From NCBI GenBank assembly GCA_046563655.1, contig CM102284.1, positions 8,494,001 to 8,558,000 on the forward strand: DNA of 64,000 nucleotides, written 5' to 3'. Below the pieces are notes generated by a model that was not told the origin of the DNA, ran no database searches, and was given only the letters and a program-made list of their open reading frames with translations. Positions 3,128 through 33,012 of this stretch are shown in pieces. Every line of letters begins with the position of its first letter. Positions within the stretch are counted from its first letter, which is position 1. A program made the translations under genes and the position numbers. Origin of the DNA: Yuukianura sp. NJ FZ-2021. Its lineage: Eukaryota.

Positions 3128-3226
3128 TTGTGCTGATGGGACTGCGTGTAGATGACTTTGTGTTGACGGAACTGCATGTGGATGATTTTGTGTTGATGGA
3201 ATTGGGTGTAGATGAGTTTGTTGATT
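3128..3226. repeat. 30-bp tandem repeat, about 3 copies
   Basis: Unit approximately TTTGTGTTGATGGAACTGCGTGTAGATGAC, repeated with substitutions. Confidence 0.75.
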
Positions 3227-6694: not shown

Positions 6695-7082
6695 TTTCAA
6701 ATGCAAGTATTTCCTAATTCTGCAATTTGCAATGTATGTAATTTGTAGTTTTGCCATTCGCAATATAAGTAATCTGTAGTTTTGTAATTTGGCACATAAG
6801 CAATTCGTATTCGTGGGAACTGCAGTGTCAATTCTTGTTGTATTGCAATTTGCAGAATAAGTAATTCGTAGTTTTGTAATTTGCAAAATAAGTGATTCGT
6901 AGATTTGCAACAGAAGTAATTCGTAGTTCTGCAATTTGCAACAGAAGTAATTTGTACTTCAATTCAGAACCCTGCCATGGAACCCTTGTGAACTGTACTG
7001 CTGTTAATTTGTATTTTTGTAATTTGCAATATAACTATTTCGTAGTTTTGTAAGTAATTTGGAGTTTGGCGAATTTGCAAAA
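6695..7082. repeat. Degenerate minisatellite (~30-33 bp unit GCAATTTGCAA..AAGTAATTCGTAGTTTT)
   Basis: Repeated GCAATTTGCAA and AAGTAATTCGTAG motifs. They explain the spurious ORF 6689..6934. Confidence 0.75.
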
Positions 7083-9978: not shown

Positions 9979-11003
9979 CAGTACTGGAAAAAATTATAGG
10001 GACAAGCATATTTTTGAAGATAACTACACGAATTGTTAACCTAAATAAGCCAAAAAAATTATATAATACGTGAATGTACAATATAAAACTATGGTGAAAA
10101 TTTCATTAAGATTCATTCACCCGTTTTTGAATTACCTCAAAAAAACCGAAGTGAAAGTTGGAAAACCTGGAAAAAATTATAAGGACATGGCACTTTTTCG
10201 GTCCAAACAATTAAGCACTACAACTTCATTTGTTGTAGTAAATTATCCAAATTTTCAGAATCATTTTTTAAGTGCTTGGGGCAAATTTTAAGCAATTTCT
10301 CAGAAAAATCCGAAAAAACCGAAGATACCCGAATTCGGGTAATTTCGGTTTTTTCGGATTTTTGAACGGGAATCTTTGAGGAAGCTTATATGGAGCATGT
10401 GGTGAAAATTTGAGCAAAATCGGCACGCTAGTTCTCGAGATTGACCAGTTTTAAAAAACGTGATTAAGTTTTAAAAAATTTTAACATTAGTTAGCATGAA
10501 CCGTTTTTCAAAAAAATGTTGTCCGAATTTTGAAGTGCCGAATCTCGGGAACTAGCGTGCGGATTTTGCTCAAATTTTCACCACAGGCTCCCTATAAGTC
10601 CCCTCAAAGAATCCCGTTCAAAAATCCGAAAAAACCGAAAATACCCGAATTCGGGTATTTTCGGATTTTTCGGATTTTTCCGAAAAATAGCTTAAAATTT
10701 GCCTCAAACACTTGAAAAATGATCCGGAAAGTTTGGGCAGCCTACTACAACAATTGAATTTGTAGTGCTGAATTATTTGGACCGAAAACATGCCGTGTCC
10801 TTATAATTTTTTCCAGGTTTTTCAACTTTCACTTCGGTTTTTTTGACGTAATTCGAAAACGGATCAACGTATCTTAATGAAACTTTCACCATAGTTTTAT
10901 ATCGTACATTCCCGTATTATATAATTTTTTGGCTGACTTAGATTGCCAATTAGTAGAGTTATCGTCAAAAATATGCTTGTCCCTATAATTTTTTCCCGCA
11001 CTG
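9979..11003. mobile_element. Non-autonomous Tc1/mariner-type foldback MITE (~1025 bp)
   Basis: TA|CAGTACTGGAAAAAATTATAGGGACAAGCATATTTTTGA ... TCAAAAATATGCTTGTCCCTATAATTTTTTCCCGCACTG|TA, i.e. TA target-site duplication and CAGT termini. The arms (~9979-10443 and ~10541-11003) are imperfect reverse complements around a ~100-bp spacer. No transposase. Confidence 0.9.
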
Positions 11004-12587
11004 TATACTTCACTTAATAGCTTACAGACTCCACCGTTTGAGAAATTAAACTTTCCATGCTAAATGAAATTTTTCAGTTGAAAATGTGTGATGATTTTGA
11101 GTGGACTGAAAGTGAAAGTTGCTTTCTCCTGCTCATGTCCGATTTTTTTCTGTTTTCCCTTAAAAGAGACAATTTGTAGTTGATATTTGTAAGTGGACGG
11201 AGTGTCCATTAGTGAAATGGAGGTTTGATGAATGATAATGGCAGAATCCAAATGAAGTTCCTCTGTCATTGACATTCTATTTTGATAGGAGAGTAAGTGC
11301 ATCTGAAGTCTAATGGACTCGTGCTCTGTGGTGGAGGGAGTAACTACTGCCGACCATTGTTGGGTCCACCATAATGAGTATAATTATGCTTTCCAATTGG
11401 AATCATTACTCCACTGTGCAATAGCAAAGTTATTGCATAGCAGTGGACCTTCCTGTCTTTCCATGATTCATCTCTTCCTGGATCCAGATTTGGTGGGTCT
11501 GAGGTGGGACTTGGGTGGGACCAGAGAGGGGTGGAATATGGTTCATTAGAGGGTCTATTGAGGAGTTGAAATTATAAAAATTGTTGTGCTGGATGATGGT
11601 GGATGGCTTGTCACAACCATCACTTCCACGCATTTAATCACCATCATCATCACCCTCCTCCACGCCCAGCCACAATCACACAGTCTCCTTCTCAAAAATA
11701 CTAAAAACTAAGTCTAAAAGTGAGAAAAACTAAAGTCTATAAGAGATTAGAATGAAAAGTGGAGTCTAAAAGTTATTGAAAGTAGAGATTTAAAGTGAGA
11801 GTGTGCGTGTGGTGTGATTGAAAGTCAATTAAAATGGGGCATGGGCGAGAGGAATTAAGACTTTCGGTTCAGCAGTTCCTTTCTTCCGTTTGGTCAGAGG
11901 CAGAGTGAGGGAAAGTAGAATTTAATTTACTTTCACTCTCCATCTCTCGTGTCAACCGGAATCAAATCAGCCAATCAGCAAGCTCAATCCAATCAAAACG
12001 GAACTTATGCCACACAACTCCTAAAGTAAACAAAAAAAAAATTTTGATTTTGAATCCGCTCGAGAATTTTCATAAATTTTGGATCAACTTTTTAGTTTTA
12101 GTGAAAGTTAAGTTTAGTTCTACATATCCTTTTACTTTCATTGCAGATTAGTTGTGTTGTAATTAAAAATTGTGAAGATGTCCTTGGTTTTTAGTTTTGT
12201 TTTTGGTGTTTCCTTGGATGTAGATCTGAGATGAAAAAGTGGGAAGTTGTTGGAGTGATTAATGAAGTTGGATTTCCATGTGGAGACTTAGTAGTTTCTT
12301 CATTTGACTAACCTTGTAGTTCCTTGTACATTTTGTATTGATGTGTTTGAGTGGACATGAAAAGAAATTAAGAGAGGCCTTGGACTCCCATTCCACAGAA
12401 ACCAATTGAATCCAATCCTCAACTTACTCAACCAACCACAAAAAAACATCTTCTGAGTTACATTTTCCAAAATATATTTCGTTGAATTTAGAAAAGTCCA
12501 GTTTGATCTGGAGATTTGTGGTTGTGATGATTGAAGGGGCTTTAGAATCACTTAGGTTGATGATGAGGTGGAGAAGGATTGTCATTT

Positions 12588-12670
12588 CCATGAGACAGGA
12601 TTCGAACCCACGACTCATTTGAGGAGTCGCTTTCTCCTTCGTCCGTCTGTCCACTGGACTGGAAGGGGAA
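12588..12670 (-). other. tRNA-like / tRNA-derived SINE head relic
   Basis: Minus strand: A-box-like CAGTCCAGTGG, stem-loop GACTC-CTCAAAT-GAGTC, and B-box GGGTTCGAATCC. The T-stem and acceptor stem do not pair properly. Confidence 0.3.
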
Positions 12671-15600
12671 AGCACCAGCTTACGGACTAAGCCTTCTTTG
12701 CCTTAATGATCTCAAAGTGACTCGCACTTTTCAAAATTATCATTTCACTTTCTCCCATAATTTCAAAATTCCAGTGAAGATGAGCTTCTCCAAAATATTA
12801 AATGTCAAATTTTGATAACTTTCTTTTCTTTTTCTAACTTTAGAATTCAATTTTTGATGCTGGAAAGTGCATGTTATTTTGATGTTTTTGAAAAGAGTGA
12901 CTGTTGTTGTAAAGGTGTTGGTGAGACAATGGTTGGCGTAGACAAAAGAATTCTTTGTGCCCATGCACATAATGACGGAGGAAACAATGCACTTCCTGAC
13001 CTGCGTAACAACTGGATTCAATGACCAAAGTACAAAAGAAATGCACCAATTGTTGTCTCTATCCATAACTAAATTCACTTTTACCCTTCACCCGTAACCT
13101 ACTCAATATTTTGACATTTGTGGCCACCACTTTATGGGTACGCAGGATTTGCTTCGCTCGTGACTTTCACCCAAGGTTCACATAACAACGAAATAGTTTT
13201 CCTTTAACAGGTTTGGCAATAAGTCCTCTTTACAAAAAATCCCGCCCCGCACAATTTTTTTCACCAATCCCATTTGAGAAAGAAGGCACAGTGACGCAAG
13301 TTTTTCTAATTTTTTAACAAAATTTAAAAAGTTCTTCACCTAACCTGTTGAAGAAAAAAGTATTTTCTTGTTAACGAACCTTGCTTTCACCAGTCCCCTC
13401 CACTTTCACTCTTCATGTGGACATGCGGAAGGTCAACAAGGTTGACCTTTGTGATTCTTTTGAAACTGCTTTGTGTGGAGCAGACAATGGTGAAGGTGCT
13501 TCCCAAAGTTATTCAAATCCCACTTCAATTGAAACCTTGCTCAATTGACACATTGTGCTCCTGGTCCATTGTCTTCGTCTTTGACCTGACGTCATTCGTC
13601 AACAAACATAACCTACCTCAACTCCTTTCAAACACAAATGAAATGCTGAGATGTAAAACTAACTCAATTAGTTATATTATTTTATTGTTTTACTTATTTT
13701 ATTATTTAACTTATTTTATTTGGCCCACCTGAGCAGTTGTGTAAAACACTACGCTCTGTGAGGTAAGAATTTACGATTCTGCAAATAAAGTTGAAGGAGA
13801 ATCTGTGAGGTGTTTTATTTTTATGAGAATTAGTAAGTGCCATTAGAAGTGTAAAAGCAGAAGCTCAATACTAAAACTAAACTAAGCCCAGTGACAACCA
13901 TAAAGAACAAGGCTAAGGGCCCCCGGGTACTTCACTAGCCCTTCAAGGGCCTCTAATTTCCAACTTTATTAGACACTTCATCCTCACCAGAAACATGAAG
14001 CTACAATGTAGCAATTTACAAAGTTTACAACCAGAAGTCACAAATTTCCTGCTTTCACTAAAACTACATTTTGGAAGAATTTAAAAGAAAGTACAAATTT
14101 AAATTCAACATTTCATAAAACTTCATTTTTTTCTTGAAAATGATAAAATTTTATAGTGCAAGTGGTGGAAGTGTGGGGCTGTTGAGAGTTATGGTGTTTA
14201 AAAAAGTTGTTTTGAACAGCTTAATTTGGACAAGATGGAGATGGTAGGTTTTATGGGAGTTTCCTTTGAGGACTCTTCAATTGTTATGCATTTTTTATTT
14301 GTCCATTTGGAATTCAGAGGAGAGAGAGAAGGGATTTATGTGTTTGTGAGTTCCCACGGTGGGGCTGGTGGGGCGGAGTGCCCCACCAGAGTTGGTGTGT
14401 CTCATTAGTTGTTTAATTGGGATTGCGTGCTGCTTCCTGTTTCCTGAGAGTCAAATGGTCCATCATCTCCACATCTTCAGATGAAGTTCCGGTGACCACA
14501 CCTAACCCACTTCCTTTTCTAACTTCCGCTTTGCATTCAAAAATACGCCCAAATCACAGCCTAATCTCAACTAAAATCTAAACACTTAAACTAAAACGCA
14601 ACGCAAATAATGACCTAGGAACCAAAATTTAAGTATCATCAAAAACCTCCAAAATATTGAGCAACTTTCAACAACTTTTTTAACTTTCACCATTTAAAAA
14701 CTCTCCAGATCCAAAAATTTCAAACTTACTTTGAAATTTTACTTAGAATTTCTCCATTCAGGTTGAAAATTGAATGAAATAGAGTTGGGAGTGGTAATTT
14801 TTTTTTTATTTTTTGATGAGCGTGACTTTTATTTGTGATTTTGCGAGATCCGCTTTTTAGAGATTTGTTGCAGCCTCCCTTGGACTTTTTACTTTATTAA
14901 AAAGTATGTTTGGGGACTTTGAGTGTACGATTGAACATTAGAAAACGCCTGGTTTTGGTCCGTTTGAGGTCAAAGGTGAGGGGGCCCTTAGGTGAGGGGG
15001 GCCTTAGCGTGTGTAATTCCTAACTGCCTCATGTGACAGTCACTCTCCAAATCAAAGGGAACTGCACCTGGACTTTACGTTTCGCAACGGAATGAAAGAG
15101 ACGGAGTATTTGGGGGCCCTTTGTTAAGGGCCCCCTCACAAATTCTCATAGACTGTCGTACCCTTCTACACCCTAATGGCAGTCCCTTCCCCTCCCTTAA
15201 TCATGACTGATGTAGGGCCTTCAGAAGCATTTCTCGGTTTCGGACAAAGGAGGGCCCTTCGGAACAGGATCCGCAACGTCTACCATTCCCACTCTTTTGT
15301 TAGGCTTTCGTGGTGACCTTTTATGAAGGGTCCCAGGAGGGGTGCTGCAGGGTCCCTTGGCATGTTAATCCCAAGTCCAACAGAACAACAAAGACGAAGG
15401 GCCCTCACCTGGGACTATGAATGGAGGAAATACCTGAGGGCCCTTAAGGCTCTCTCTGCTTCTCTGCACTTTCTCAATAGAGAATTCTTAAAAGTGTCCG
15501 ATGCTACTTCGTTACTCTTAGTTTCTTCATCCCCAGCCTCCTGTTTCCAAACTACCAAGAATAATATCCTCAAGGCTTCTTCGGTTTCTCAAGGGTCCCC

Positions 15601-17429
15601 CCTCCAAGGGCCCCCTTCTGAACCCATTCACAACACATTCTTAGGAAATTCTTAAATACAATCTTAAAATTTCTTAAGATTCGGATATCGGATGATTTCT
15701 TGCAGAAATTGTGGGAAGAGAATTCGTCCATCATTTTTCTTGGATTATGAAATGGACGGAAGGACGGAGGACGGAACTGTCTTTAAAATGTGTAACACTA
15801 GTCATGTTACCATGTTGCCATCGTGTTGCCATGTTGCCATCGATCAAGGCCTGTTCAGAGGGTGACGGTGGGACAGTCACAGTGAATTGACATGGATCAC
15901 AATCACCCTGTGGTTTACTTTCGTCACGGGAACAAAACCACCATTTCATACTGCAAAACCCCGCTGCTTCAAATCCATCAAAACACAAATTACTTCCAAT
16001 TATACTCCCACTAAACTCGAAACACCAAATTTTTCAAAATTTTGAAATCTTCCGAGCGAAAAACGGCAAAATTTCAGATTTTGCACTTAGATTCCCGATC
16101 AGAGTTAACGTCGCTTCAAAATTTTCTTAGGGAATTAAAGGTTCAAAATTAACTTTCACCTTACAGTTTTTGGGTTCATTCTAAAAATGTGCAGTAAAAT
16201 TTTACATTGCTTGTTAAATTTTTTGTTTGAATTCACAAGAGAAAGAAGCTATACGTGTACTATTTGTTGAATTGAAATCCAAAAGGTTGTTCTTTATGTC
16301 TTTTCACGGTTGGGATTTCACGCTTCACCCTCAGCAGCCTCGGTTTGTCTCTTTTCAAAATTTGGACAAATAAATCAAAATTTAATCATCCCTCTGTTTT
16401 TTGAAATGGAAATTTGGAAACAAGGTGTGTTTCGAAACAAGTGGACACATTCATCCTCATTCCCAATTACTCACATTCCGGTTTCAACCATTCACAAATC
16501 CAAAAAGAGAAAATTCAAAAAAATTTGTACTAATTGGACGCCACTTGAAAATTTCTCACTCTCACTCAAATGGAGAAAGTTGGAAAATTTCACTCCGGAA
16601 TTTGGAAATTGCGAATTCTGATTTGGCAGTGAGGAAAGTGCGAATATTTGGCACATTTGGAAGTGTTGATGCGTTGTGTTAAGTAATTGTGTGGAGTAGG
16701 AGGTTATAGTGAATGAGAACAATGGATTGACACAATGGAGTGACTCATAATGGAAATCTCCTTCCACAGATCCATTCTTCCTTGGATGAATAAAAGTTGT
16801 TGACATTGTGAAGAGTTGTACACAACATATACTTGGATTTAGCATCACCAGGAGCCCTTAAGGACCTCCAATTCCAATCCACTAATTCACAATAAGGGCC
16901 CTTTCACTTCCCAATTCAACACACTCTAAGCAGTGCACTTTTCAAAGTCAATTCAAAAAGTACAAAGGTTATTCAAAAGAGAAGATCAACGTAGTCTCAC
17001 AAGTGGATTCAAAAACATGTTCAAAAAGTTCAAAATATTCAAAAAGAAATTCAAAATTATTTGTTTCAGTTCCGAATTTTGGCCTTTTTAGAACTTGCAA
17101 ATATTTCAGAAGTTACCTAATTTTTTTTAATTTTCAGTTGGCGTTGAAACAAAGTTTTGGGTATTTGGAGATAAATGTTGAAGTTATCTCAAGATATCGA
17201 AGGAAAAGGGTTATCTAAGAGTAGTTTTGAGATAGTTTTCATAAGTTTGTGTCCATTTTGTAGAAATTAGTTTTTAGTTTAGTTTTTTTCCCTTATAGTG
17301 GTAGCTGGTAATAAATGTAGTGTATTTGCCAATTGAGTTCAATTGGGAGAAAGGGAAGGTCTTTAGGGAAGTGTGTAATTTGCCAGGTTCTCTCTAGCTC
17401 TTTCTCTGTTAGTCTGGTGGTTAGGTGGA

Positions 17430-17660
17430 CATGGTGGGTTCGGTGGGGCGGAGGGACGATTCCCCGCCCCACCTTCTTTTTCTGACGTCAGAGCAAGAGA
17501 CTAGCTGTGTTTGGGAGGGAGTAGGGAGGGAAAGGCGGAGAGAGGAGAAGAAAGGGCGTGGTGGGGCTTCGGCGGAGCCACAGACGGGGCTTTTTTGTTT
17601 GGGGCTAGAGCTGGCTTTGGGTTGGGGTTGAGGTGGCTCAAAAGAAAAATGATATAGGGA
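17430..17660 (+). promoter_or_regulatory. Probable SoxN proximal promoter
   Basis: G-rich island ~470-700 bp upstream of the ATG, with GC boxes (GGGGCGG, CCCCGCCC, GGGCGTGG) and a CRE palindrome TGACGTCA at 17483. Confidence 0.45.
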
Positions 17661-17999
17661 ATGAAAAGACTCAAAAGCCCTTTCAAACCAATTGTTCAAC
17701 TCACAGCACAAAGGCTACACGCTCTTCACAATTCCAACAATATTCAACATCTCCACAATATTCAAGACAACAGATTAGGATTTACAAGGTCCACAACTGA
17801 CCTCAAGCAGGGGTCAACGCAAAAGTTCAACCACTTTCTCCACGGCTCACTTTTAAGTCTCACTCCACCACAAAACACAATTTCACCAAAGTTTTGAAAA
17901 AACACAATTTCACAAAAGTTTTGTTTCACTTCAACTTTGAGTTCCGAGTGACTTTTATTTGGATCTTGGAATGAAAAGCGGACTGTCCAGTTTAAAATT

Positions 18000-18121
18000 C
18001 AGTTGAAATCCATCAGTTGAAAGTTGAAATTAGTTGAAATTCATCAGTTGACAGTTGAAATCAGTTGAAATTTATCAGTTGACAGTTGAAATCAGTTGAA
18101 ATTCGTCAGTTGACAGTTGAA
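18000..18121. repeat. CAGTTG-rich tandem repeat immediately 5' of the SoxN start codon
   Basis: About 10 CAGTTG hexamers arranged in a ~30-bp unit (AAATTCATCAGTTGACAGTTGAAATCAGTTG). Confidence 0.85.
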
Positions 18122-18131
18122 TTTGAGTGGA

Positions 18132-21100
18132 ATGTCGTTCTGGGGTCGTGAGTTGTCCCTTGACCCCTCCGGTTCCCCCCTCACGCACCACCCCCACTCT
18201 GGAATGACTTTGATAGAGGACATGAAGCCTTCAGGGCTCCACTCCCACCCCTCCTACAACCTTGACCTCAGGTCACCCTCTACTCACTCTTTGTCCCCCG
18301 GGGGGCAGATGATGCATGGACAGCAGCAGGGAATGTCCAGTGCTCACTCCCACCATGCACACAACGGTGGGGCCCATGGTGGGTCTGGTGGGGCCAAGAA
18401 CTCTGCGAGTGCTGCTGCCAACCTGGACCGGGTCAAGCGCCCAATGAATGCCTTCATGGTGTGGTCCAGAGGTCAACGGCGGAAGATGGCCCAGGAGAAT
18501 CCCAAGATGCACAATTCGGAGATCAGCAAGCGACTGGGGGCGGAGTGGAAACTGCTAAGTGAGACGGAGAAAAGACCGTTTATTGATGAAGCGAAGAGAC
18601 TCAGGTATGACATGTATGTACACCCTAAGCATATCACAATCCTAACAGTTAAGGTCACCTCTCACCTCTTCAACTTCTGCTTTCACCTTTGCATCTTTTA
18701 CTCACTTTCTCAAAATTTTACACTTTTCTAGTCAAAGGTTTCGTCTAGAAATCAGCTAACATCAGGTAGAATGCTGTTTTTAACCGATTTCGTGCTGATT
18801 CTGCCGATTTTCTGCTGATTTTCTGAAGATTTTGCAGATTTTCTGCAGATTATGCTGATTTTCTGAGGAATCTGCTGATTCTGCTGATTTTCTGAGGAAT
18901 CTGCTGATTTTCTGAGGAATCTGCTGATTTTCTGGAGATTCTGCCGATTTTCTGTTGTTTCTGCTGATTTCCGGGATTTAGTGTGTCTAAAAGTAGATTT
19001 TGTGTAGATTTGACATTGATTGTGCGGATAAGAGGGTCACAGAAGCAGGTTGTGACCCTGGCCAAGGTTAAATGTTAATTGATTGATAAGTAAACCTTCA
19101 TGAATTATGGAATTGACATGGAGCTAAGTGGGCTAATTAACACCTCGCATCCACACTCTCAGTTTTAGCAAACATCCACTCCTCCCTTGCATCTTGGTCA
19201 CAATTTGAAACCTTGGAATATTCAATTTCAACTTGTTCAAACACTGTTCAAACAGAAATTGAGTTTTAAGAGGAGTTGAAACAGAGTGGAAGTGTATCAC
19301 TTCTGTCCCAAAATAAGTCCGAGTACCTGGGAATTATAAAATTAAGAGGAACCTTGGACGAAGGTGTTTTGAAGGGACGTTGAAGGGCCCTTGGGGTCAG
19401 GCGGTGGGGTCAAAGGGTCACTCCAACTTATTTTCAACTTCAATTTTACTGTTTGAACAGCCGAGGGTCCAAGGGCCCTTCAAAGCCTAAATAATATTTT
19501 CGTCTTGGCTGAAGGACTGCCAAAGGGCCCTTCTGCACAGGAATATTTTAATTCTCTGCCTCAGCCGCCGTCAAAATTCTAAAAAAAACTTGTTTCGGCT
19601 CAACATTTTCAGAAAAAAAGTAGGAAATGGAGCTACATTTTGGAAATGTTGTAAAAGTTGAATTTGGGAAATGTTGTGAAAGTTGAAAATTTTGTCTAGT
19701 AGTCTGAGAAGGTTAAATTGAGAGGGGGATTAGGAGATTGAATTAATCAAGGGCCCCCTCCCCTCCGAGGGAACTTGTAAATGTGCTTGGCAGTTGGCCA
19801 GATACTCGCCACCCTTCCAGTACTTTGGACCATGTCGAACAAGGTCTAATAAATGTCAACTCTAATTTCATTAACTCCAATCCATTTAGTCTACTCTACA
19901 ACTCCTAACTCCATTTCAAATTAAAACACACTCAATTAAATACACTTTACTAAATACACACTCTATGAAGTACACACTTTGTTAAAAACACTCAAACAAC
20001 GATACATCAGACACAAATTCAGTCAACAGTCTTCAAAATTTCAGTTTTGAAATTTTGAGCTTTTGCATTTTCAGCTACAGCGGAATTTTCGGCATTGATT
20101 TAACCATTTCGTTGGGAAAGTTTTGAAGGTTGTGTCATTTCCAGCTTTCTTTTGAAAGTTTCTTCTTTTGAAAATGAGAATTTGAAAAATTTTGGAAATG
20201 AAGCTAAAAAATGTGTGTTTTTGTGAGTTTGGAGCTTTTAGAAGGACAAAATTGGAGTTGACCTTTGACCTTTGTTAACTTAGACGTGGATTTGTTGTGT
20301 TTCAGGGCTGTGCACATGAAGGAGCATCCAGACTACAAGTATCGCCCAAGAAGGAAGACAAAGACCCTGCTCAAGAAGGACAAGTACCCTCTGAGCGGGC
20401 CAGGGGGCGGGCATGGGGGCGGGGGTGGCAGGGCGGGCAGCAGCAGCAGTGGAGATGGGATCATGAGTGGGCCAGGCTCAAGTGGGTCCAATGGTCACCA
20501 TGGCAGTGGGTCCATGTCCAATGGCCCACATGCCCCACCGGACCACTCCAGAAATGGACCACCCAATCATCACTCTCTGCCCAATCATCCACCCACGCAT
20601 GCGCATCACAACCTCAACCCAAGAGATCTCTACTCTCACCAGGCAATCAATGGATACATGCCCAATGGATACGCTCTCATGGGAGACCCGGCATACGGAG
20701 GTAAGTGACCTTTGACCTCAAACTTACATAAATTACATCAAATGATGTAATGATGTAATTGATGTAATGATGTAATTTTTCCAGGTTACATGAATCCTAA
20801 CATGTACGGTCGATACGACATGAGTCCAGCTACAGCGTCCTCAATGTCCACTTCCCCATATCTCAATGGCTCACCATACGCTATGTACGCCTCCTCCACG
20901 ACTCCGGTGGGATCGTCTTCTGGCGGTGGGACTTCGGGTGGCCCCACGAACAACGCCCCCTCTCCATACATGCAATCAATGGGCTCCGTGTCCAGTGTGG
21001 GTTCTAGTGTGTCACCTTCACCTAAAGAAGCCATGTCACCCTCTGCCAACAACAACAACAACACATCTCTACCCAATCACAACACGAATTCAATGCACTC

Positions 21101-21410
21101 ACCACAAGGCTCAACATCTTCGTCCCACCTCATGAGTCCACCGCCCCACCTCATGGCAGCAGCAGCAGCAGCAGCCAAGTACGCTCACCCGCCCCACCAT
21201 GCTGCCCCACCACCAAGTGCCGGAGATCTGCGCAACATGATCACCATGTACTTGCCCTCCCACCATCACCCCATCGACTCCCACCATCCCATCCACCACC
21301 ACAATCATGCAGCCCCACCGCCCCACCACCCTTACACAGTGAAGACAGAATATGGAGCTCCCTCCCCTTCAGACATGGTAGGAAACCCACTTATTCCGAC
21401 CAATTTGTAA
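18132..21410 (+). CDS. SoxN: SoxB1 / SoxNeuro-like HMG-box transcription factor (~497 aa). Exons 18132-18604, 20306-20700, 20785-21410; possible alternative last exon 21523-21630.
   Basis: HMG box [99 protein letters not shown] is SoxN/B1-type. The C-terminal [11 protein letters not shown] matches the SoxB1 DLRDMISMYLP motif. GT-AG introns are in phase. Confidence 0.93.
18793..18970. repeat. Intronic tandem repeat (CTGCTGATTTTCTGAGGAAT and subunits)
   Basis: Repeated CTGCTGATT(TT) units in SoxN intron 1. Confidence 0.85.
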
Positions 21411-21623
21411 TTCAGTCCCACTAACAACTCTCTTGGTCCCACCAAAGTCCCACGGTGGGGCAATTGTTCATATCAGCCCCACCACACATTATGATTACTG
21501 TCTCATTGTGTCTCTCCCTTAGTCAATCAAGAAGGAATACTTCTACGCCTGGTCAAACTCTAGAAATGACCGATCACCTCCAGCCACTCACCACTACGCC
21601 CCACCACCCACTGATGATGAGGA

Positions 21624-21747
21624 AGACTAGGGGTCAAAGGTCAGTGACCTCCAGCAGACTTGGGGTCAAAGGTCAGTGACCTCCAGAAGACTAGGGGTCA
21701 AAGGTCATCGACCTCCAGAAGACTAGAGGTCAAAGGTCATTGACCTC
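21624..21747. repeat. 32-bp tandem repeat x4 built of nuclear-receptor half-sites
   Basis: Unit AGACTAGGGGTCAAAGGTCAGTGACCTCCAG(C/A), starting at 21624, 21656, 21688 and 21720. Confidence 0.9.
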
Positions 21748-24700
21748 AGGCCGACGCCCACTCTGTGATCAGAAAATGGAGAAACTGAAGGTGTCAATCA
21801 TAAATTTACTTGCCCGGTGGCTCCCTCTGCCCTCTTCTCACAATTATTTAACATTTAATGTACAAAGTGAGTGTTGACCTTTGACCTCTGCTGAGGTCAA
21901 GTGCCGAAATCAGTATTACTTGGATCCAGTGACTGGACATGTAATGTGTGGAGGTCACTTTTTGAAAAGTTTATTGTACAGGTTCTGGATTTCCATGTGT
22001 ATACGACTACTTTAGTTACACTACATGACACGAGTCGTTCATTTCTAAGGAGAATGTATAGTGTTGTCTCTCTAATTAATTAATTATCAATTAATCACAA
22101 ATTAACACCCAATCCCCCTTCAAATCCTCTTTTTAATAATCAATTAATTAAATCTTAATTAAAGTTAAATTAATAAATTAGCCCCATCAGGCAACTCACT
22201 TCAAAACAAAGTTCGCTTCCGCGCCAGTCTCCAACAAATCACAAACTTTTTTTTTGAAAATTGCAAAATTTAAATGCCACCAACTTTTAAGGATGCAGCA
22301 GCAACAGGAGTTTCAAAAGCTGAAAAAGTTCGGAAAATAATGTTTGCCAGGTTTGAGATTGAGTAAAAACAGAATTGAATTTTGAATTTTGTGATTGAAT
22401 TTTAAAATTTGGAAAAAAAAGTATAAAGTATTTGAGAGCGTGGGAATTGACGATTGAATTCTCAGGTGTGAAGATGGGGTTTGAGATAATGTCCTCCCAA
22501 CAGATCAATTGACAGCCCTAGCATCCAAACCAACAGTTTCTTATGTTGAGGTCAGTCGAGGTCAAGTTGAAGGGAGGTCACTTATATCAAATGATGTGGA
22601 AGTGGCAGAGTGACCTCGTCATGTCATGGTCCATTGTCCCCTCCTTCTGTCACACAACGACGCTACTTCATGACAAAGGCACTTTCTGTGGAGAATGATG
22701 AAATGCGTGACACTTTTATTCCCAACACACCTGGACCCTTAAGGGCCCTTTCGCAATGAGCCCTTCAACAGCAGTCCCTTCACGACCCTGCGGTGACCTC
22801 TGCACTCCTACGACAGCCATTACTGCAAGGAAACGACAAAAACAGCAAAATAAAAGCAAAAAAAAGAAAGAGCAAAAACTAAATTTTTGGGAGCCTAAAC
22901 TTTAACTTTCTCATTTTTTGCCGAATTTTCACTCCCAGAATTAGAAAACTTTAAAGTTAAAAAAAATGTCTGCTAGGACGTCGGGATTATTTCGAACGGT
23001 GACATGTTTCTGAAAACATTGCAAAAAAAGTTGTGCAATTTTTTTTTCAATTGGGAAATGCAGAATTTCGTGGGCCACTGACTGCTCTGAATTGTGCCCC
23101 GGAGTGATGGAACTGTAAGTTTAATTGTGATTTGTGCAACTTCCGTCGTCTAATCGCCAATTCCACGCTCTCTGCTCTCTCTAACAACTTCTACTCATCA
23201 CTTTTAATTCAATTCACAATCATCCCATGTCCAATAACATAACAAAAATAATAATAAAGTAACAGTAAGACCAGTGGCAAAGCACAAGTCATCCTCACAT
23301 CAATTTACAAACTCCTTAAGCATCTCCTCAAATTCAGAACACACTTTCCACTGCGTGTTCGGGACTTTGCACATTCTAATTTTCGGCAACTTCTCCCTTC
23401 ATCTTCTCAAAATCAAAGATTCAATTATGCTTCACTCTCCAACTTAAACTAAAACACGAGCGGAACGAAAACCAAAAGTTGCGAAACTCAGAGAGGGAAA
23501 AAAGTTGGATTTTTTTGGTTTTGCAAATTCCACAACAGAATTTTTGTTTGAGAGGAGAACTGGAACCGTTTCGCTTGATTGGTTTCGGAATTGATTGACG
23601 TCGTGAAGTTTCTCACCTGAGCACATCCAATCATCTCAACTTTAAAAAAAAGTTTTACTTTTTAGTTTTTACACCCTCACGGATTTACTTTGGACACTGT
23701 GCGTGTCCTTCTAACGAATCAATTTGAAGTTTTTTGGTAAGATGCATAATAGATGAAAATCCTAATTCCAAAGTTTCGGTTTTTGCGTTTGATTAGAGGG
23801 TACGCAGATCCAAATTGGATTAAAATCACAATCCAACCACACGACATGCCACTCTCGTGCTGCAGGAAAAGTTTGACCAATTGAAGTAACTCAAACATTC
23901 AAATGTAACACTTTTAAAACTACTTTTAAAACTTACTTGTTGCTTTTACTTCAAAAAACTAACATCCAACAATCCAAATTAATTCAATTACACTCACAAG
24001 TTGACACGCCAAAAAGTTGTGCTTCGACGCCACTCTGCTGTAAAACTTTTAAAAGAAAGTTTACTTTCACTTTACTTTTTTTTTCTACTTTACTTTCTCT
24101 CTTCACTAAAACTTTCACCAAAACTAAAGTTTTAAGTTAAAACTTTCAACCAAGGTGAAATGGTAAGTTTTAACCTGAAAATACTTTAACATTCAACTCT
24201 GAATTGTGTAAAAATGAATGTTAAATGTTGATTTAGTGCAATATTTCATGGGTTTTCATTGAGAATGTTGCATGTTGGGCAGAGTTGCTTCTGAAGTTGC
24301 TTCTGAGGAAGTTGTAGTTGGTTGAGGTAATAAGTCACTTTTTCCAATAATGAAGCTTCTGTTTCATGATGTTTTTGATTTGTGGATGTACTTGGAAGTA
24401 TTTTGTGTACTTGGCAGTATTCTGTGCTAAGGAGAAACCGGTTGAGATTCCAATTAGAGAGATGGTGAAGTGGGTGGGTTGAAATGCAACACTAGTTGCG
24501 AGATACAAAGTACATAGTATAGAATACATATTGGTTTTACAGGAGAAAGTGATAACAATCATCTTCAAAACTATTGATTTACTCTCCAAGTTCCGCCCAA
24601 TTCAACCACACATTCCCACAAAACTAAACGAACTCTTAACCCCAACTGCAATCCACACTCACTTTTCAAAATTACAATTTCAAAAAATTTTTTTAAAAGA

Positions 24701-27700
24701 TTCGTGAATTTGAATTTTACAATTTTTAGAGAAAGCGAAAAAAAAATTAATCTAACCTCTCAATGATAAAAGTCCGTTCAAACAAGCAAAATTTCACGCA
24801 AATGGCGTTGAATCGTACATTTTTCTTTCTTGATTTTTCTTTTGCCTAATTTTTTTCCTTGTCTTTTGGTTGATTGTCATTTGGCTTAAATTGTTTTAAA
24901 TTCTTTGAAAATGTGTTAAATTTTAGAAAAAATGTAAATTTTTTGCTAAATGTTGAAGAGTATTTGTTAATTCTTAGTGTGAGGAGTGTCTTTCGTTGAG
25001 GTGTTTAGTTTGGTTGATGAATGGAGGGGAGTGGAACGTGGCTAATGATTTCCAGTGACACTGGAAAACCATTTCTCACTTTCCTTTGTCTCTCCAACAT
25101 CATAAACAACAAGTCATTTACAACAAAACAAGCCAAGAAGCCAACTTCTAACATCTTAGAGTTGGCAATGATCACTCGCATCACTTGTTCAAATAAAAAT
25201 ACTTTTTAAAAAGCCAAGTTGGGAATGGATGGAAGTCGGAAGTGAATGTTAATTTACCTCCCGACTTCTCCCTTTGCTGCTCAACTGGAACAAATGCACT
25301 TCCTTCCGTCAAACTACTCCAGCGATCCATGAATCATACTTCCATAATCCACATCATCCACAATCCATTCCATAATCCACATCATCCACAAATCCATTCC
25401 ACAATTACACAACTCCAGAACTTCCCTATTCCAAGGCGAGGTCAAAGGTCATAGTCTAAAAAACAAAAATGCAAATCTGCAACATTTCATCTTCAGTTCC
25501 AAAAATCAGAGATTGGTAAGTTGGTGAGTTAAAAGTGAATCAAAATCAAAGAAAACCAGGCTCAAGGAGGACTTGGAAGTCCAAAAGTTTGAGTACTTTT
25601 CATGTTGTTGGAGAGGTCAAAAGGTCAAAGATTTCATGTTTTTGGCTCAGTTTGTGCTTGGAAGTGGGAGTTTGATGCCTGGACATGAAAGTAGTGGAAG
25701 GAAGTTGTCCCCCTCCGCTGTGGACTAAAATGCAAATGAATTCCGGCATGGAGGATTTGAACCGACGGCGGAAGTACTTTTCTACTTCTGTGAACAATCC
25801 GCCTCCGTCTCCTTCCTCCACTCACTTCCTACTCCACTTCCGCTCTCCACCGACTCTAATGAGCACAGGTCAACCCAAGGTCAAACTCTAAACAATTTTC
25901 AAAATTTCATCATTTTAAAAAATAATGGTGGTTCAAAATTTCATCATTTCAAAAAATAGTGGTGACGATCAGAATTGGAGAGATGACAATGGAATATTTG
26001 TGAGCTAGGAAACAATACTCCTCAGAATTCCTGGAGCAGATCAAACTTTGAGCATAAAAAACAGTCACGACTGTTGTGGATTCGAGAGAAGATGATCAAG
26101 ACGTGATGCACCTCCAGCATCTTCCAAATTCCTTCATGTTCCCAGGATGGGTTTCCAATAAAAATGCGCATGAGTGGTGAGTTTGGTCCATTCGCAGCCT
26201 CCTTTCTCCCAGGGAAAGCCCATTTCTAATCCAATTTGTCTAAACCCCTCCTTTTGTCTTTTCTCCCCTCCACTCACTTCTCAAATTCAAACTTTCTCTC
26301 AAACTTTTCACTTTCTCTCACTTCTCTCTTTTCACTCACGCAAAACTACCCCCTACAACTTTCCATTCAAACAACGAAGTCTTACTGTCAAAATACTCCG
26401 GGAATGCATAATTTATTAAATTGTGATCATAAATTTCTGTGACATTCCAGTGCTTAATGAAGGTGAGGAATCGCACAATGTTCTCACTTTTGCGTTTTGA
26501 CCTCATCTGTCACTGTCACTCTACGCAGGACGACCTCCGTGTCTGTTGTGGTGGACAAGCATGGAGGATTGAAAAGTGAGGAGAGTTGAGCCGTGGAGTT
26601 GAGAAAGCGATAATAAATGTGATTTTAATCTGGGTAGAATCCTACTTTCTCTTTGGAGGGGAAAGTAAAAAGAGGAATCAATTAAAAAGACGTAATTTCT
26701 GTTCTGAGAGGGAGAGATGAGAGTCCTTTCTTCTTTTTATCAAGGATCTCTCTCCGCAGCATCCCAATCTCCGCAAGAGGATTAGTCCACAGTCACTCAA
26801 GGACTCAAAGTCACTTCAACTGGCTTTCATCTCCACTTCCACCGCTTTTCAATCCCACCAAATCCCATCTCCTACTCTACAACAAGGAAAGGAAAAGAAA
26901 AATAGAAAGTACAATGTTCAGTCTGTCTATACAGAAACTATTGATTTCCTGTTAACATTTGATTTAGTTAGCTTAATGCTTAAGAAACATTAATGCTAAT
27001 TTGGTAAAAGCGAAGAGTAAGAGATTGAATTCCAATTAAGGGAGGAGTGAGTGTGATAATTAATTAAAATGAGTGCATTAATTGTTATTAGTTTTGCATT
27101 AATTCCAATTTCATATGGATAAGAATGTAAGTTGGCGTGGGTGAACAGTGAGTGTCAGTTGGTGTCATATCACAGTGTGATTTGTGTGAATTTTCATGTC
27201 GTGCAGACTGTTGTCTTAAAAGTGGACTCTCGATTTTGGCAGGATCCTATGCGGATATTATGCGGAACAAAAAGGTTCCTCACTTTTTTCAACTTGTGAC
27301 GTCACGCTATCTGACGTCACTTCATTCGGCATTCCCTTATGTTATCTCGCATTCTTTCACAAAACACCTTGGTTGTTTTAAAATCATTTTCATATGGCGT
27401 TTAAATCAATACAAAAAAAATCAATAATTTCTTTTTACTTTGAAAACTTTAAAACTTTGCATTCAAAATTTTGAATTTCCAATCTATGCACCTCTATCAG
27501 TTAAGTTCAATTGGCGATTTCACACAACGTGCAAATTTCTTTTTGCAAAAAGCACAGGTTCAGAATTTTTGCAAATTCTAAAGCAATTTACTTTTTTTTT
27601 AATTTCAAATCAAAAGAAATCAAAGCATTTATTTCCCTTTCACCATTTTTTGAGCCCTTTTATTTCCATTTTGCATCAGTCCTAACATTTCAAAAAACAA

Positions 27701-27963
27701 AACTAAAGAATCACAACAGAGAAAATGAAAATTACTTGAGAGTTTAAGTAACAAAGTGTTAAGTTCAATATCAATTACCACCACTATTTCGTCCCGCTAA
27801 AATTATTTCTTCCAAGTTACAATTCTTTAGAAATTATTTCTTTCATAATTTTTGAAATTACTTCTTTCATCATCTTTTTAAACTATTTCGTTGCCCTTTC
27901 CCGTGCATTTTGGTCTCGTGCTGAGTGAATAACTATGAATAGTTCCTACTTTCTCCTTCCTCG

Positions 27964-30900
27964 TCACTTTTTCTTCTTGTCAGTGTCTCCTTTCTTGGGC
28001 GACTTCTTGGGTGACCCCGCAGTGACTGCGTTCTTGTTCCCATTGACCTTTTGAGTGACCTTGTTCTTGCTCTTCCCTCCCTTGACCTTTGACACTCCCT
28101 TGCTGTTCCAGTAGTACAACATTTGAAGGGCAATGACAGCGTTGCATGCAGAAGCCGCTGCAAAGGTCACGATCACCACAGAGTCCCCTGTTTCCTGGAT
28201 GGACGTGTAGATTCTAGCAGTGGAGCCAAAGAACAGCATGAACACAGTCACCGCAGACAGTTGACCAGTCGACTGGTTCTTGTAGTTCGCCACTGCCTGG
28301 ATCATCTACAAACCAAAAAACATCATTTTAAAATTTCAAAATTTTAAAATTTCAATAAATAAAATTCTTTCAAAATCATTCAAATCAAGATCTTAGCCTT
28401 GAACATCTCAGTCCAATGTTACACAACCAATAATTAGCACAATTTCACACCTCCACACTTGCATTCCTCCACTCGTAAGTTACGAACGACCATCACTATG
28501 ACTCTCAAACCTTCGTTTTTTAAAAACTTCCTGACTCATGTTGGAGTCATTAATTAGAGAATACAAGGAAGCCCTGAGCCACCGTCGTCCCACAGCCACC
28601 GTGATGAGCCCCAAACCCACACAACTGGAACCACCACCATCTTCATCTTAAAGTTGGAGTGACAAAGAAGATGATTAATTTAGGACTTTAATTACAAGTC
28701 CATCGGCATTATTAAGAAATTAAAATGGATTGAGGAGATGACAGTCATCATGGCCCTCTCTTCCTCTTTTCTCTAAAAACCACCCCAAAACTTTACTAAT
28801 TACACAAAACAAAAGGAAACTTCACACCTCACCCATAAGTCCTCACAACGATTAATTTACCCCAAAATGAGAAAAGTTGCCACTTTTACAATGGACCACA
28901 AACATTCCAAATGAACTTTTCCCTCAACGCATCTCTCTCTTCATTACTTTTTCACACTTGTTCAAAGGAGAAGCCGATCGTTTCCAAAATGCCAAGTTTT
29001 TTGAAAAATTAAGTTTGAAATTGGATTGGTGGGATTAAAAAGGAGGAAGTCTACAGGAGAGGTGTAAAAAGTAGGCATAAATGAAGGTAGTGGAACATCA
29101 TTAATAATCCAGACACTGAAGGGAAGTTCCGCTCAAGATGAAATTGGGAAGAGAGAGTAGCAAGTGATTTTTAAAAAGAAATCTCTCCTCTCAACACCTT
29201 CAAAAAACTAAATTAATTGTACTTTAAGTTACCGAAACCACAAAAATCCTAAACTCCAAAAAAACATCCCAAGAAAAAAATCCTCATAATTAAAAGTTCT
29301 CCATCAACTAAAATATCGTTCACTCCAAAAATTCAATCCTGCAGCATGAAATTTCATAAAAACTGGATTTTCAGTTTTTAAAAAACTAGAAAATCGTAAT
29401 TTTTGAAGTTCAAAAATTAGTAAGTTCAAAATTTGAACTTACTCTGCTTGTGATGATGATTGGTACGTTGAGAGCTTGCATTGACCAGAGGACGTCGACC
29501 GGCGTCACTCCAGAAATGAGTCCATAAAGTACTGCTGCGTAACCCACGAAGAAGCTCATTGGCAGGAGATTACTTGCGTAGTTGTACTTGAGCACCAGAG
29601 CAGCGATGATGCTGGTTTGTACTGCCATGAACGACACTTCACCCCACGCACTGAAATCAAAATTCAAACATCAATTTCAAATTTTCAAACATCAATTTCA
29701 AATTATATGCAGGAAAAATCAAAAACTGAGACAAACATTTCCAAATTTTTGGACCAAGGAGAGTTTCCAACTTTGTAATTTGTATAACGCCGCTAATGCC
29801 TTAACGTTTCAACGGTTGGTATGCTGTGATTTCATTTTTATAAAAAATTTGAAAAAAGAAGTTGAAAAAACAAAACGGAAGACGTTGTAATTGTCGTTCC
29901 GGAAATCAATCGTGGTGGATTTTGGAAAAAAAAGAGAGAAAATGAGTGATTTCCTTGGACATGCCCTGATGCACTCTGACCTCTCCTTGACATTTCCATC
30001 CGTCACATTTCATGTCAACTTTTTCTCAAAATCCACCAGTCATGCATCCCAATACAAAAACCTACGAAACGTAATTAGAACCAATCAAAACTCAAAACCT
30101 CAAAGGGAAGACGACGGGAGGAGGACATACAAAAAATCAAATTAAAAATTAGTTCTTTGATTTTTTCCCACGACTTTACCAGAAAAAAAGAAGAAAAAAG
30201 ACAAGTTCTGTGTTGTGTGAAAAAATTGTCATGATCCGATGAGTATCGTTTTGTTCCAAACTTCAACAGAGACAACAGTAAAAACCAAAATACGAAAAAA
30301 CTGAACCGTAAAATCCAACTTTACCAAAAACTGCTGATTTCATTCTCAGAGGAACCAATTAAATTCTACTCAAAGTTAGACGCCGTACGACCAAAATTTG
30401 AACTCAAAAGCACGCAATCCTAGACCAAAAGTTGAAAAATTCAAACTGAAAAGCTAAAAAGCGAAAATTGAAAATTGAGGTGTTGGTGTTGCTTTTTAAT
30501 CAAGACTTACAAATTACTGCTTAAAGATTTCGTGATAAATTCGAGTAGCTGTCTCACAGGAAGAGATTCCCCTCTAGGAAAATCAGTTTCGGAGGCAGTG
30601 CTCTCTCATTTTTTAGAGAAGATGAATACTAGAGCAGGAAAATGTAGAAAGGAGGCCCTTCAAGGGCCCACTTTCAAACTTGTTTAATCAATTCTCATCT
30701 CCCAGGCATCTCTTAAGGCTTCTAGCTTCGACCCACCGAAAAAATTAAAAATGTGATTGAAGCGCTTCAATTTCAGAAACTTCCAACACCTTCCCTCCAA
30801 CATGTTCTAATTATGGAGAATTAAGGTGAAGATGCTGAATCAATCAGAACGAAGGTGCGAACCACCCCCTGTGCTCACAAATCCCCAAATTCAAATTCTC

Positions 30901-33012
30901 ATCTTCGTCATCCCTCCTTCCCACGGCACAACTTAAAAGAGATCAATCAAAAATCCAACCAAAGATCATCACTCAACACTCCTCTGATCACGAGAAAAAA
31001 CTTAAAAATTGAAAATTGGATGTTAATTAAAATTTTAAGGGGTAATTAAGAGTCCAAGGTCCTCTGATTTCCTGACTCCATCTTAAGCATATAACCTTGA
31101 AATGAACTTCTGAAAACCTTGGAGGATTTGTCGTGCTTTTGAGAATTAGCGAAGGCCAAAGTATAACAAAGAGTCTCCCCAGAGGGGATGATGGAAGATG
31201 GAAAGTAAAGTGAGTAGCAGGAGGCGTGTCGACTACATTTATAATCAAATGATCCGATCCAGGTCACAGTGAATAAATTTCAAAGTCCCACTGCGACACA
31301 AAAAGTTAGGAAACGTGACATGATGAAGGAGGATTTGCACAAAGTTTAGAATGGTCGAGGCTGTCATTCCGTTGGACCAAATGACAAGTCATCGCTCAAA
31401 CCAACCAACAGTTCAGCTTCTTAAGCATTCTCATAAGAATCTAATGGTTTTTAGACAAGATTCAAAATTAGAAGAATGTAATTGGAAGAAGATGCGGCGG
31501 GAGATGAGAGTTGTGCAGAGGTTAATGATGATTTGGGAAGATGCGAAGGGCACTTGGGGGGCTCTGTGGTCCAAAAACATGACAAATGAGTGTAGCAGCA
31601 GGTAGCTCACACCACCAGGGGGGCAACTTCTCAAAAAACACACCACCAACACACAATTTACAAAATATTCTCAAATACTCTCAAAATGAAAATTTTCAAA
31701 ATCTGCCAAAAACCAAAACCAATCACTCATTTTTCCAAAAAACTCATTTTCAACATCACCCTGAACAGAAATGCGTGAAATCCCAATTTAAAAAAATTCA
31801 AAATCCAAAATTTCCTAAAAACAAAACTTTTTTGGAACTTAAAATTTCTGTTGAATTTCTACGCCATTTAGGTCCCAAATTCATAAAACTATGAGAAAAT
31901 AATAGGAAAATGCATGTAAAATTGAGTTGAGTGGCGTTGAGGATGGAAATGAATTTGTGAAGAATTAATTTGAGTTTGACCTGTGATTCATTTTCCTCTG
32001 GTTTTTAACAATGTTGTGGAAGTAGGAGGTTTGAAAACGGAAAGAAGTGGAAGTTGCGTTTAATAAATCAAGCGTTAGTAGAGGGAGGAGGCGTTCTGTT
32101 TTCCATTCCTGGAGAACTTGTTTCAAATCGCTACTCTGGATGGAAATTTGTAAATGGGCTCAGAACACGCGTAGGAATAAAAGTGATCTTCCCTTGGTTT
32201 ATGATCCGAATTTTGGGAGATCTCGATCATAACTTTTGTGGAGAGAAAGAGAAAGTAGGGTTTGTGAAATAAATAGAGAAAATTGTGAACTTGATGGATC
32301 ATTCACCTACTTCAAATGTTCTCAAACCATTTCAAATAAATGATCTCTCCCATAATGGTAAAAATGGCAAATTCGTTTCAAATCAGTTTAGGTTCCCATC
32401 CTCTTTCCACTCACTCCCAAATACAATTCTTGGGATCAATCTACGATACTCTAACTTTGATGAGAAATGGAAAGATTAGCAACTCAAACAAGTTGCTAAA
32501 AAGATGTTTCAAAAGTGAGTTTGAAATGCTTACCTGAAAGGAAATCCTTTGCAGTAGGAGTATGCCAGATTTGAGGACATGGCGAATAGTTCCAGTAGAA
32601 CTCCGATGAACGTGATTCCAGCTGCACTTTGATTCTTCAGAATTTTCCCAATTTGAGGCACTTTGACTAAATACAGAAAACGAAACGTTAGTTAGCACTT
32701 TGTAGTTGAGTAGTTAGTAGTAGTGTTTTTGTTGTGGTACCGAAAAGAGAGCCAAGGATGATTCCAAGTCCCAGCCCTTTGCTGAGTCCATACTTCAAAC
32801 AAGGAACTGCAAAAAACAAACAAACCGTCAATTAAGAACTGGCAAATTGACTCGTTCAATTACGTTGACCATTAAAAAAGTAAGTAGGAACGTTGAGCGA
32901 CACTGATCTCGTGTGCACTGTATTTACCATCAGTGAAGTTGTAGTCGATGAGAAACGTGTTGAAGCATTCCTCGCTCAGAATCGGAGAGAGTACGAGTCG
33001 CAGAGTATCCAT
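27964..33012 (-). CDS. MPDU1: Mannose-P-dolichol utilization defect 1 (PQ-loop protein, ~277 aa). Exons 33012-32928, 32806-32741, 32666-32534, 29650-29443, 28305-27964.
   Basis: [85 protein letters not shown]; C-terminal KKKK (di-lysine ER retrieval). Phases are consistent. Confidence 0.93.

Follow-up and report, generated by a model that had tools for sequence, protein, structure and literature searches.

In animals, neural specification depends centrally on the SoxB1 genes, and the organisation of their regulatory landscapes is poorly known outside flies and vertebrates. Our study deals with a compact eukaryotic stretch of 64,000 nucleotides (nt) from Yuukianura sp. NJ FZ-2021 (GCA_046563655.1, contig CM102284.1, positions 8,494,001 to 8,558,000 of the forward strand; the whole stretch is called the window and all positions refer to it), in which a Sox gene (+, 18132-21410) and an MPDU1 gene (-, 33012-27964) are found as convergent neighbours. 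The gene models of both were read off the sequence and their exons were joined in a script. These models agree in every coordinate with a preliminary description of this DNA, in which an adjacent and convergent SoxN/MPDU1 pair had been reported, and the pair is discussed here as a possible genomic regulatory block.

The Sox gene starts with the ATG at 18132 and its three exons, with GT..AG junctions, splice into an open coding sequence of 497 amino acids. Exon 1 (18132..18604, +) encodes the N-terminus together with HMG-box residues 1 to 57 (Pfam HMG_box, 9e-23), exon 2 (20306..20700, +) completes the HMG box and adds the group-B region (Pfam SOXp, 7e-15), and exon 3 (20785..21410, +) forms the C-terminal region in an open frame closed by the TAA stop codon at 21408-21410. 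Intron 1 (18605..20305, +) is 1701 nt long, of phase 2, and splits the HMG box, while intron 2 (20701..20784, +) has 84 nt. Among solved structures, SOX-2 was the best match to HMG-box residues 1 to 61 (124.6 bits), with SRY (89 bits) and SOX-17 (82 bits) as well as SOX-4 and SOX-9 ranking below it. A protein search with exon 2 gave 904 proteins at an expectation value (E) <=0.001 from 3039 candidates, the best of the 120 matches listed being an Orchesella cincta protein named 'SOX-2' (E 2.4e-34, 53% over 98% of the query), and a second search with this Orchesella protein as query followed the same naming pattern. The names among the 120 matches listed per search were Sox-1, -2 and -3, SoxNeuro (Tribolium, Bombus) and 'putative SoxB1', with 'SOX-5-like' as the single odd name; Sox-14, Sox-21 and Dichaete did not occur among the 120 + 120 matches listed for the two protein searches. 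Bee orthologues of the gene are labelled soxNeuro by the National Center for Biotechnology Information (NCBI), and exon 3 aligns to the C-terminal parts of Tribolium and Bombus proteins named SoxNeuro. Exon 3 carries a putative B1-type C-terminal signature motif. Judging from the best matches and their names, the gene is placed in the SoxB1 (SoxNeuro / Sox1-3) group.

Within the HMG box, intron 1 of the Sox gene follows on the codons for ...AKRLR. Vertebrate sox1-3 are single-exon genes and the intron of sox15 arose in bony fish (PMC8244163, in the part of that paper drawn on here), so that the intron within the HMG box was probably gained independently. Contigs of two DNA runs were found to align to the HMG box from 18550 to 20312 without intron 1 and with a higher summed depth; their probable source is a Sox paralogue, or a copy lacking the intron, within the same read sets. 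Two tandem arrays lie near the start of Sox, one of 31 nt x 4 at 17999-18121, ending 11 nt before the ATG, and one of 20 nt x 7.6 at 18810-18970, within intron 1.

The minus-strand gene has five exons with GT..AG junctions, and its spliced frame is open over 277 amino acids. These are exon 1 (33012-32928, -; start codon 33012-33010), exon 2 (32806-32741, -), exon 3 (32666-32534, -; Pfam PQ-loop, 7e-9), exon 4 (29650-29443, -) and exon 5 (28305-27964, -), which contains a second PQ-loop (Pfam, 1.8e-7), a Lys-rich tail and the TGA stop codon. The spliced protein is 79.8% identical end to end (residues 1-277 versus 1-272 of 273) to P0001, a homologue from a 1.4-kb transcript-like contig with which exon 4 is collinear, and the transcript contig L001 aligns to exons 1, 2, 4 and 5 as adjoining blocks. 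The search with exon 5 yielded 48 homologues among 262 candidates, and 11 of 13 named ones say mannose-P-dolichol utilization defect 1, the remaining two being unnamed or hypothetical. Identity of the spliced protein was 60% to Allacma fusca MPDU1, 52% to fish mpdu1b, 51% to the crab protein and 47% to that of Daphnia. On the strength of its two PQ-loop repeats and of its end-to-end similarity to annotated MPDU1 proteins, the gene is identified as MPDU1. For both genes the best relatives that carry a name come from springtails, which makes a springtail the probable source of the DNA.

The two MPDU1 introns on the Sox side, intron 3 (32533-29651, -) and intron 4 (29442-28306, -), measure 2883 and 1137 nt, whereas the other coding introns have only 121 nt (intron 1, -) and 74 nt (intron 2, -). 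The Sox-side introns are thus 10- to 40-fold enlarged, and the sizes of 1.1 and 2.9 kb against ~75-120 nt given in the preliminary description were confirmed. In other MPDU1 contigs (L053-L055, L058-L060, L068, L070 and L043/L044/L072) exon boundaries were seen near residues 94 and 164/165 of P0001, which are the sites of the two introns enlarged in the window, and the introns at these sites measure about 0.1 to 1.6 kb. These common exon boundaries, from contigs of other organisms, suggest that the positions of the enlarged introns are old. Two insect gene models fuse MPDU1 to a same-strand gene, namely a BLTP3/UHRF1BP1-like N-terminus in Anopheles maculipalpis (P0058) and a JAB-domain protein in Dufourea novaeangliae (P0070), and they hint at differing neighbours on the 5' side of MPDU1 in those insects.

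The flank upstream of Sox (1..18131) is gene-free for at least 18 kb up to the window edge; no gene was detected in 1-18 kb, and the 10 longest open reading frames (ORFs) there were without a Pfam match. In the intergenic DNA between the two 3' ends (21411..27963, 6553 nt between the stop codons), none of 16 ORFs tested had a Pfam match. To the right of MPDU1, at 33-64 kb, there are at least 8 coding regions, among them some with cyclin-type, LDL-receptor-repeat, ArfGAP and F-box domains. Apart from Sox, no developmental regulator was detected in the window. The gene-poor domain centred on Sox thus spans at least 33 kb; MPDU1 is the first gene met at its edge, and the expansion of MPDU1 is confined to the half that faces Sox.

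Relatives of the locus were collected by scanning metagenome contigs with the MPDU1 alignment, which gave 216 matching stretches and 98 confirmed relatives, the best 80 of which (362,854 nt) were taken as the MPDU1 metagenome set. One of these contigs, L042 (6807 nt), carries MPDU1 exons 4 and 5, with 78% and 57% amino-acid identity to P0001 and with 68-75% nucleotide identity to the window. In exon 4 the identity between L042 and the window is 86/91/45% at codon positions 1/2/3. The low third-position value means that neutral sites are essentially saturated, and L042 is a deeply diverged relative. When L042 was compared with the whole 64-kb window by blastn, 14 non-coding matches were found at E<1 besides the two exons, and 12 of the 14 are collinear on the minus strand from 26211 to 31620, six of them at E<=1e-3 and the best at 3e-12 and 9e-12. 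The control, in which L042 was reversed, gave one match (E 0.18). Five of the 12 collinear matches lie in intron 3, two in intron 4 and four in the intergenic DNA, and one weaker match overlaps.

The five blocks of intron 3 (all -) are 31519-31620 (76% over 103 nt, E 3e-12, with a 22-nt exact core at 31519-31540), 30837-30882 (77% over 53 nt, E 1e-3), 30328-30363 (E 7e-5, 20-nt exact run), 30221-30260 (E 5e-4, 20-nt exact run) and 30128-30199 (E 9e-12), the last with a 40-nt exact run at 30131-30170. In intron 4 the blastn blocks against L042 are 28788-28830 and 28661-28729 (-), and 28956-28969 (-), which carries CTTGTTCAAA at 28957, is also conserved. The intergenic blocks are 26768-26801 (E 0.069), 26675-26723 (E 5e-7), 26604-26633 (E 0.026) and 26211-26252 (E 1e-3), all on the minus strand and with exact matches to L042 of 24, 19 and 16 nt. 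Altogether the non-coding exact runs between the window and L042 are 40, 24, 22, 20, 20, 19, 19, 16, 14 and 14 nt long, and the longest exonic run is 17 nt. In the alignments, islands of perfect identity stand between unalignable DNA and length changes, and judged by sequence this is the usual look of conserved non-coding elements.

The architecture of the gene is also similar in L042, as its intron-4 equivalent has ~1.5 kb and its intron-3 equivalent more than 2.45 kb; upstream of exon 4 the contig continues for 2450 nt, and no MPDU1 exon 3 was seen there. The claim of the preliminary description that the Sox-near MPDU1 introns host constrained elements is upheld by the collinear blocks in L042, where both introns are large. 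Within the set of 80 loci, L042 is the only one with a non-coding match in the MPDU1/intergenic region, L047 (a second MPDU1 contig of the same metagenome) having no collinear non-coding similarity; a stray non-coding match was obtained with L079 at 3023-3088. Read depth, taken from contigs of four DNA runs, is over both big introns that of the neighbouring single-copy bins. A high-copy repeat was noticed ~700 nt downstream of the MPDU1 stop codon (26624-27295, near 27190), where the depth is ~10x that of neighbouring bins and where many loose contig ends occur at 27191-27295.

Other identities for the blocks were also considered. Nested genes or transposon ORFs were sought among 34 ORFs of the introns and the intergenic DNA, and none reached the Pfam cut-off. 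The window gave 0 Rfam matches and 0 transfer RNAs, and eight folds of the blocks, on both strands, gave z-scores of -0.27 to +1.86, with no sign of a structured RNA or microRNA. On these results, the blocks resemble neither exons nor RNAs nor transposons.

The model of genomic regulatory blocks with bystander genes is reportedly due to Kikuta, Becker and Lenhard. As in such blocks, a developmental transcription-factor gene lies here in a gene-poor landscape, the conserved non-coding DNA sits in introns of an unrelated housekeeping neighbour, and the gene order recurs in a distant lineage. In contrast to the established blocks, the elements of the window are candidate enhancers, and their conservation is seen over 5.4 kb in the comparison with a single relative. 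What is established directly is the gene pair with its intron sizes, and the conserved elements with their collinearity to L042. Taking all evidence together, we moderately favour the reading that the window holds a genomic regulatory block around a SoxB1 gene, with MPDU1 as the bystander and with a linkage older than the arthropod/vertebrate split. The landscape of Sox on its 3' side would then span the 6.5-kb intergenic DNA and reach into the 3' half of MPDU1, and the conserved elements in the intergenic DNA and in MPDU1 introns 3 and 4 would most likely act as enhancers or silencers of Sox. With Sox-directed elements in these places, a break between the genes would deprive Sox of some of its control DNA.

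Such systems have been described for other genes, with Otx and Islet as ancient examples of regulatory blocks (Irimia et al. 2012, PMC3514665, as far as the part drawn on goes). Clusters of conserved non-coding elements are also described in the corresponding part of Harmston et al. 2017 (PMC5585340), where soxN and SOX1/2/3 are listed among the loci lying in them. The present locus resembles those of Drosophila SoxNeuro and vertebrate SOX1/2/3 in having dense conserved non-coding DNA around a SoxB1 gene, by which a regulatory domain is delimited; MPDU1 is not named within such a domain in that part of the paper (PMC5585340). The elements of the window are springtail-lineage elements, known from the comparison of a springtail-type window with L042. 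The kind of system is hence well known, and the Sox-MPDU1 locus would be a new member of it.

The neighbourhood of the two genes in vertebrates is described in PMC8244163, and the following statements hold for the part of that paper drawn on here. Sox15 lies between Mpdu1 and Fxr2 in 148 eutherians examined, the polar bear excepted, and monotremes are alike; sox15 adjoins mpdu1 in two caecilians and two frogs; the teleost sox15 orthologues lie between mpdu1 and eif4a1 in 9 of 10 cases; and in sturgeon and ropefish sox15 is found between fxr2 and mpdu1, with supporting synteny in elasmobranchs (PMC8244163). SOX15/Sox19 is an ohnologue of SOX1/2/3 and hence of the SoxB1 lineage (PMC8244163). The adjacency of SOX15 and MPDU1, which the preliminary description had given for human, thus extends as sox15/sox19-mpdu1 across jawed vertebrates (PMC8244163). 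The window is like this vertebrate sox15/sox19-mpdu1(-fxr2) block in that the same two orthologous families are immediate neighbours, whereas in the vertebrate account mpdu1 serves as a synteny marker only, and neither invertebrates nor regulatory elements of mpdu1 enter the part of PMC8244163 drawn on.

The Sox-MPDU1 pair is accordingly known from two lineages, the window and the jawed vertebrates. Ancient conserved gene pairs are estimated to involve ~12% of ancestral bilaterian genes, and Sox is among the regulatory-block families (PMC3514665, same part). Because of this survey and the low odds of being random neighbours, common ancestry of the pair is more likely than coincidence on these two comparison points, and it is plausible that the pair dates from the bilaterian ancestor. 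The same constraint may explain the vertebrate sox15/sox19-mpdu1 neighbourhood. A fuller scenario, in which SoxB1 and MPDU1 were locked together since before the arthropod/vertebrate split via Sox enhancers in the MPDU1 3' introns and the bystander was retained, once the vertebrate genome had been duplicated, by the sox15/sox19 copy only, is put forward tentatively and should be taken as somewhat doubtful.

A number of observations weigh against an ancient Sox regulatory block at this locus. No HMG box was found in any of the 80 metagenome MPDU1 loci, which is a weak point as these are mostly transcripts or loci with just 2-9 kb of 3' flank, and the 3' flanks (2-9 kb) of the metazoan-like MPDU1 contigs contained no Pfam-recognisable gene. 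The crab Eriocheir sinensis has lost SoxB1 (PMC12955089, in the part drawn on) and retains MPDU1, and sox15 has been lost in birds and several reptiles (PMC8244163); because of these cases the linkage is not obligatory. No paper tying MPDU1 to invertebrate Sox genes was found in full text, although supplementary tables may list the pair, and no paper on the location of the fly gene named CG3792 was found; a paper that does bring together mpdu1b and sox19b deals with expression. L042 ends at about position 26200 of the window, some 4.8 kb before the Sox stop codon, and hence the position of Sox lies outside it. Further, it is from the gene class and from the continuity of the blocks past the 3' end of MPDU1 that we infer Sox to be the target of the elements.

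The sequence words shared between the Sox flanks and the big introns, from which the preliminary description had argued for regulation, have to be counted on both sides. Its two motifs do lie where it had put them, ACAATGGACC at 28888-28897 and CAAGGGCCC at 30661-30669. The argument built on them did not hold, as both are absent from L042 and the sharing of 10-mers is expected by chance; 1-kb non-coding tiles have 52-232 ten-mers in common with the Sox flanks, and dinucleotide shuffles have 39-158. As neither occurs anywhere in L042, ACAATGGACC and CAAGGGCCC are without evidential value for conserved function. ACAATGGACC has 5 copies versus 0.13 expected, all left of 29 kb and with unrelated flanks, including those at 1974, 6469 and 13563. 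CAAGGGCCC has 9 copies versus 0.27 expected, 8 of them left of 31 kb, and its intron 3 copy is within a 17-mer (30653-30669) which recurs at 3992-4008. Two other words have copies inside the conserved blocks. CTTGTTCAAA occurs in 7 copies (0.84 expected), all within 3.9-29 kb, and the copy at 28957 is kept in L042; CTGCTGATTT occurs in 6 copies (0.19 expected), five of which are the Sox intron 1 tandem array (20-nt unit), and the sixth, at 30331, lies in a 20-nt exact block (30328-30347) of MPDU1 intron 3. The density of words enriched in the Sox flanks is higher in the two big introns than in non-coding DNA of the right half, by a factor of 1.3 to 2.4, and the shuffle-normalised word score of the introns is above the right-half control in 9 of 9 non-independent settings (2.00 versus 1.33 for 9-mers, for example). 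The control DNA, however, holds unmasked short exons, which favours the introns in this comparison, and the observed/expected ratio of 10-mers is 1.26-1.53 in 5 intron tiles versus 1.08-1.46 in 18 control tiles, with 0.76-1.88 in the 27 Sox-flank tiles, so that this ratio hardly sets the introns apart from the control. The word sharing gives weak support to the regulatory reading.

The regulatory block may be real and yet restricted to one lineage, the landscape of Sox having invaded MPDU1 within the hexapods or springtails, with the vertebrate pair as a coincidence. This would fit with a pair common to two lineages only, with elements documented against one relative only, and with the fact that the pair was chosen after the fact in the preliminary description; moreover, chance adjacency can be estimated at roughly 2 in a few hundred genes, or a few times in 1,000, if both genes belonged to the same ancestral chromosome. 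If gene order were random over ~10,000 shared genes, the odds of a named neighbour would be ~2 in 10,000 by our estimate. The orientation would agree too, human SOX15 and MPDU1 being convergent. These points, together with the share of ancestral bilaterian genes held in ancient pairs, Sox family included (PMC3514665), speak against coincidence, and we regard the lineage-restricted alternative as rather unlikely.

It is also conceivable that the blocks serve MPDU1 itself or an unannotated transcript (an alternative exon, a long non-coding RNA or a nested gene), in which case the proximity of Sox would be meaningless. The target of the blocks rests on inference, and the 40-nt block is open in one frame on the MPDU1 strand, both of which speak for this possibility. 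Against it, the blocks run collinearly beyond the 3' end of MPDU1 toward Sox, their conservation is non-coding in kind (40/40 identical versus 45% at exon third positions), insertions and deletions have altered the spacing between them, they gave neither a Pfam domain nor an Rfam family nor a fold signal, and no developmental regulator other than Sox was detected in the window. MPDU1 is a housekeeping glycosylation gene, and this class is not usually ringed by conserved non-coding elements, which counts against MPDU1 as the target. Hence a role of the blocks in MPDU1 or a hidden transcript is considered quite improbable. Far less credible still is that the introns have become large through neutral build-up of DNA or transposons and contain nothing functional. 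Tandem repeats and A/T-rich low-complexity words in the introns, and the high-copy repeat nearby (~27190), could be cited for such growth. The collinear blocks are conserved, however, in a relative with saturated synonymous sites, both introns are single-copy by read depth and they are enlarged in L042 also; the 45% third-position identity further disfavours L042 being a recent horizontal or contaminating copy.

If the ancient regulatory block which we favour is real and the pair is old, the locus would be a well-defined addition to the catalogue of linkages held by cis-regulation, and the sox15/19 paralogon, not SOX1/2/3, would have kept the ancestral neighbour. The springtail locus would then represent a compact and tractable version of the ancestral bilaterian SoxB1 block, with elements of 20-40 nt. 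The entire landscape has ~33 kb, within which the candidate elements are of small size and have sharp limits (30128-30363, 31519-31620, 28661-28729 and 26675-26723). Even if the pair were coincidental, the locus would still be an ordinary but clean case of a Sox regulatory block that includes a bystander gene.

A gene at 33913-37145 is placed head-to-head with MPDU1 and consists of a membrane-like N-terminal part and a 750-amino-acid exon, which is histidine-rich with repeated H-H-D-N-H units and matches no Pfam family above the cut-off.

Further words were found to be unevenly distributed in the window. CAAGGGCCC belongs to a palindromic AAGGGCCCTT-type family, whose homotypic clusters lie at 3347-4008, 13917-16896 and 19385-19751, with one more place at 22743. 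There are 23 GGGCCC sites, 19 of which lie no further right than 22743, while MPDU1 intron 3 has one and the DNA right of 33 kb has three; 13 of the 23 are in the flank 1..18131, with 8 sites within the 3 kb just upstream of Sox, and 4 are in Sox intron 1 (19385-19751). Other G+C-rich 6-base palindromes have no left-side bias in the window. The Sox flanks show a strong enrichment, over 5486-24111, of words that contain GTGAAAGT or GAGAAAGT as their core (at 10149, 10825, 11110 and 24063, for example), and these words resemble IRF or Blimp-1-type sites. AACTTTCAC has 12 copies in the Sox flanks and 0 in either the MPDU1 introns or the non-coding DNA of the right half. The direct-repeat word TGACCTTTGACC has 12 copies versus 0.02 expected; four of them form a 32-nt x 3.9 tandem array at 21622-21747, just after the Sox stop codon, single copies stand at either end of Sox exon 2 (20259-20270 and 20706-20717), and further places are 21875-21886, 25440-25451, 46412 and 48609-48811. 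This word resembles a DR1 nuclear-receptor site, and it may represent either a motif with a regulatory role or a dispersed repeat of small size.

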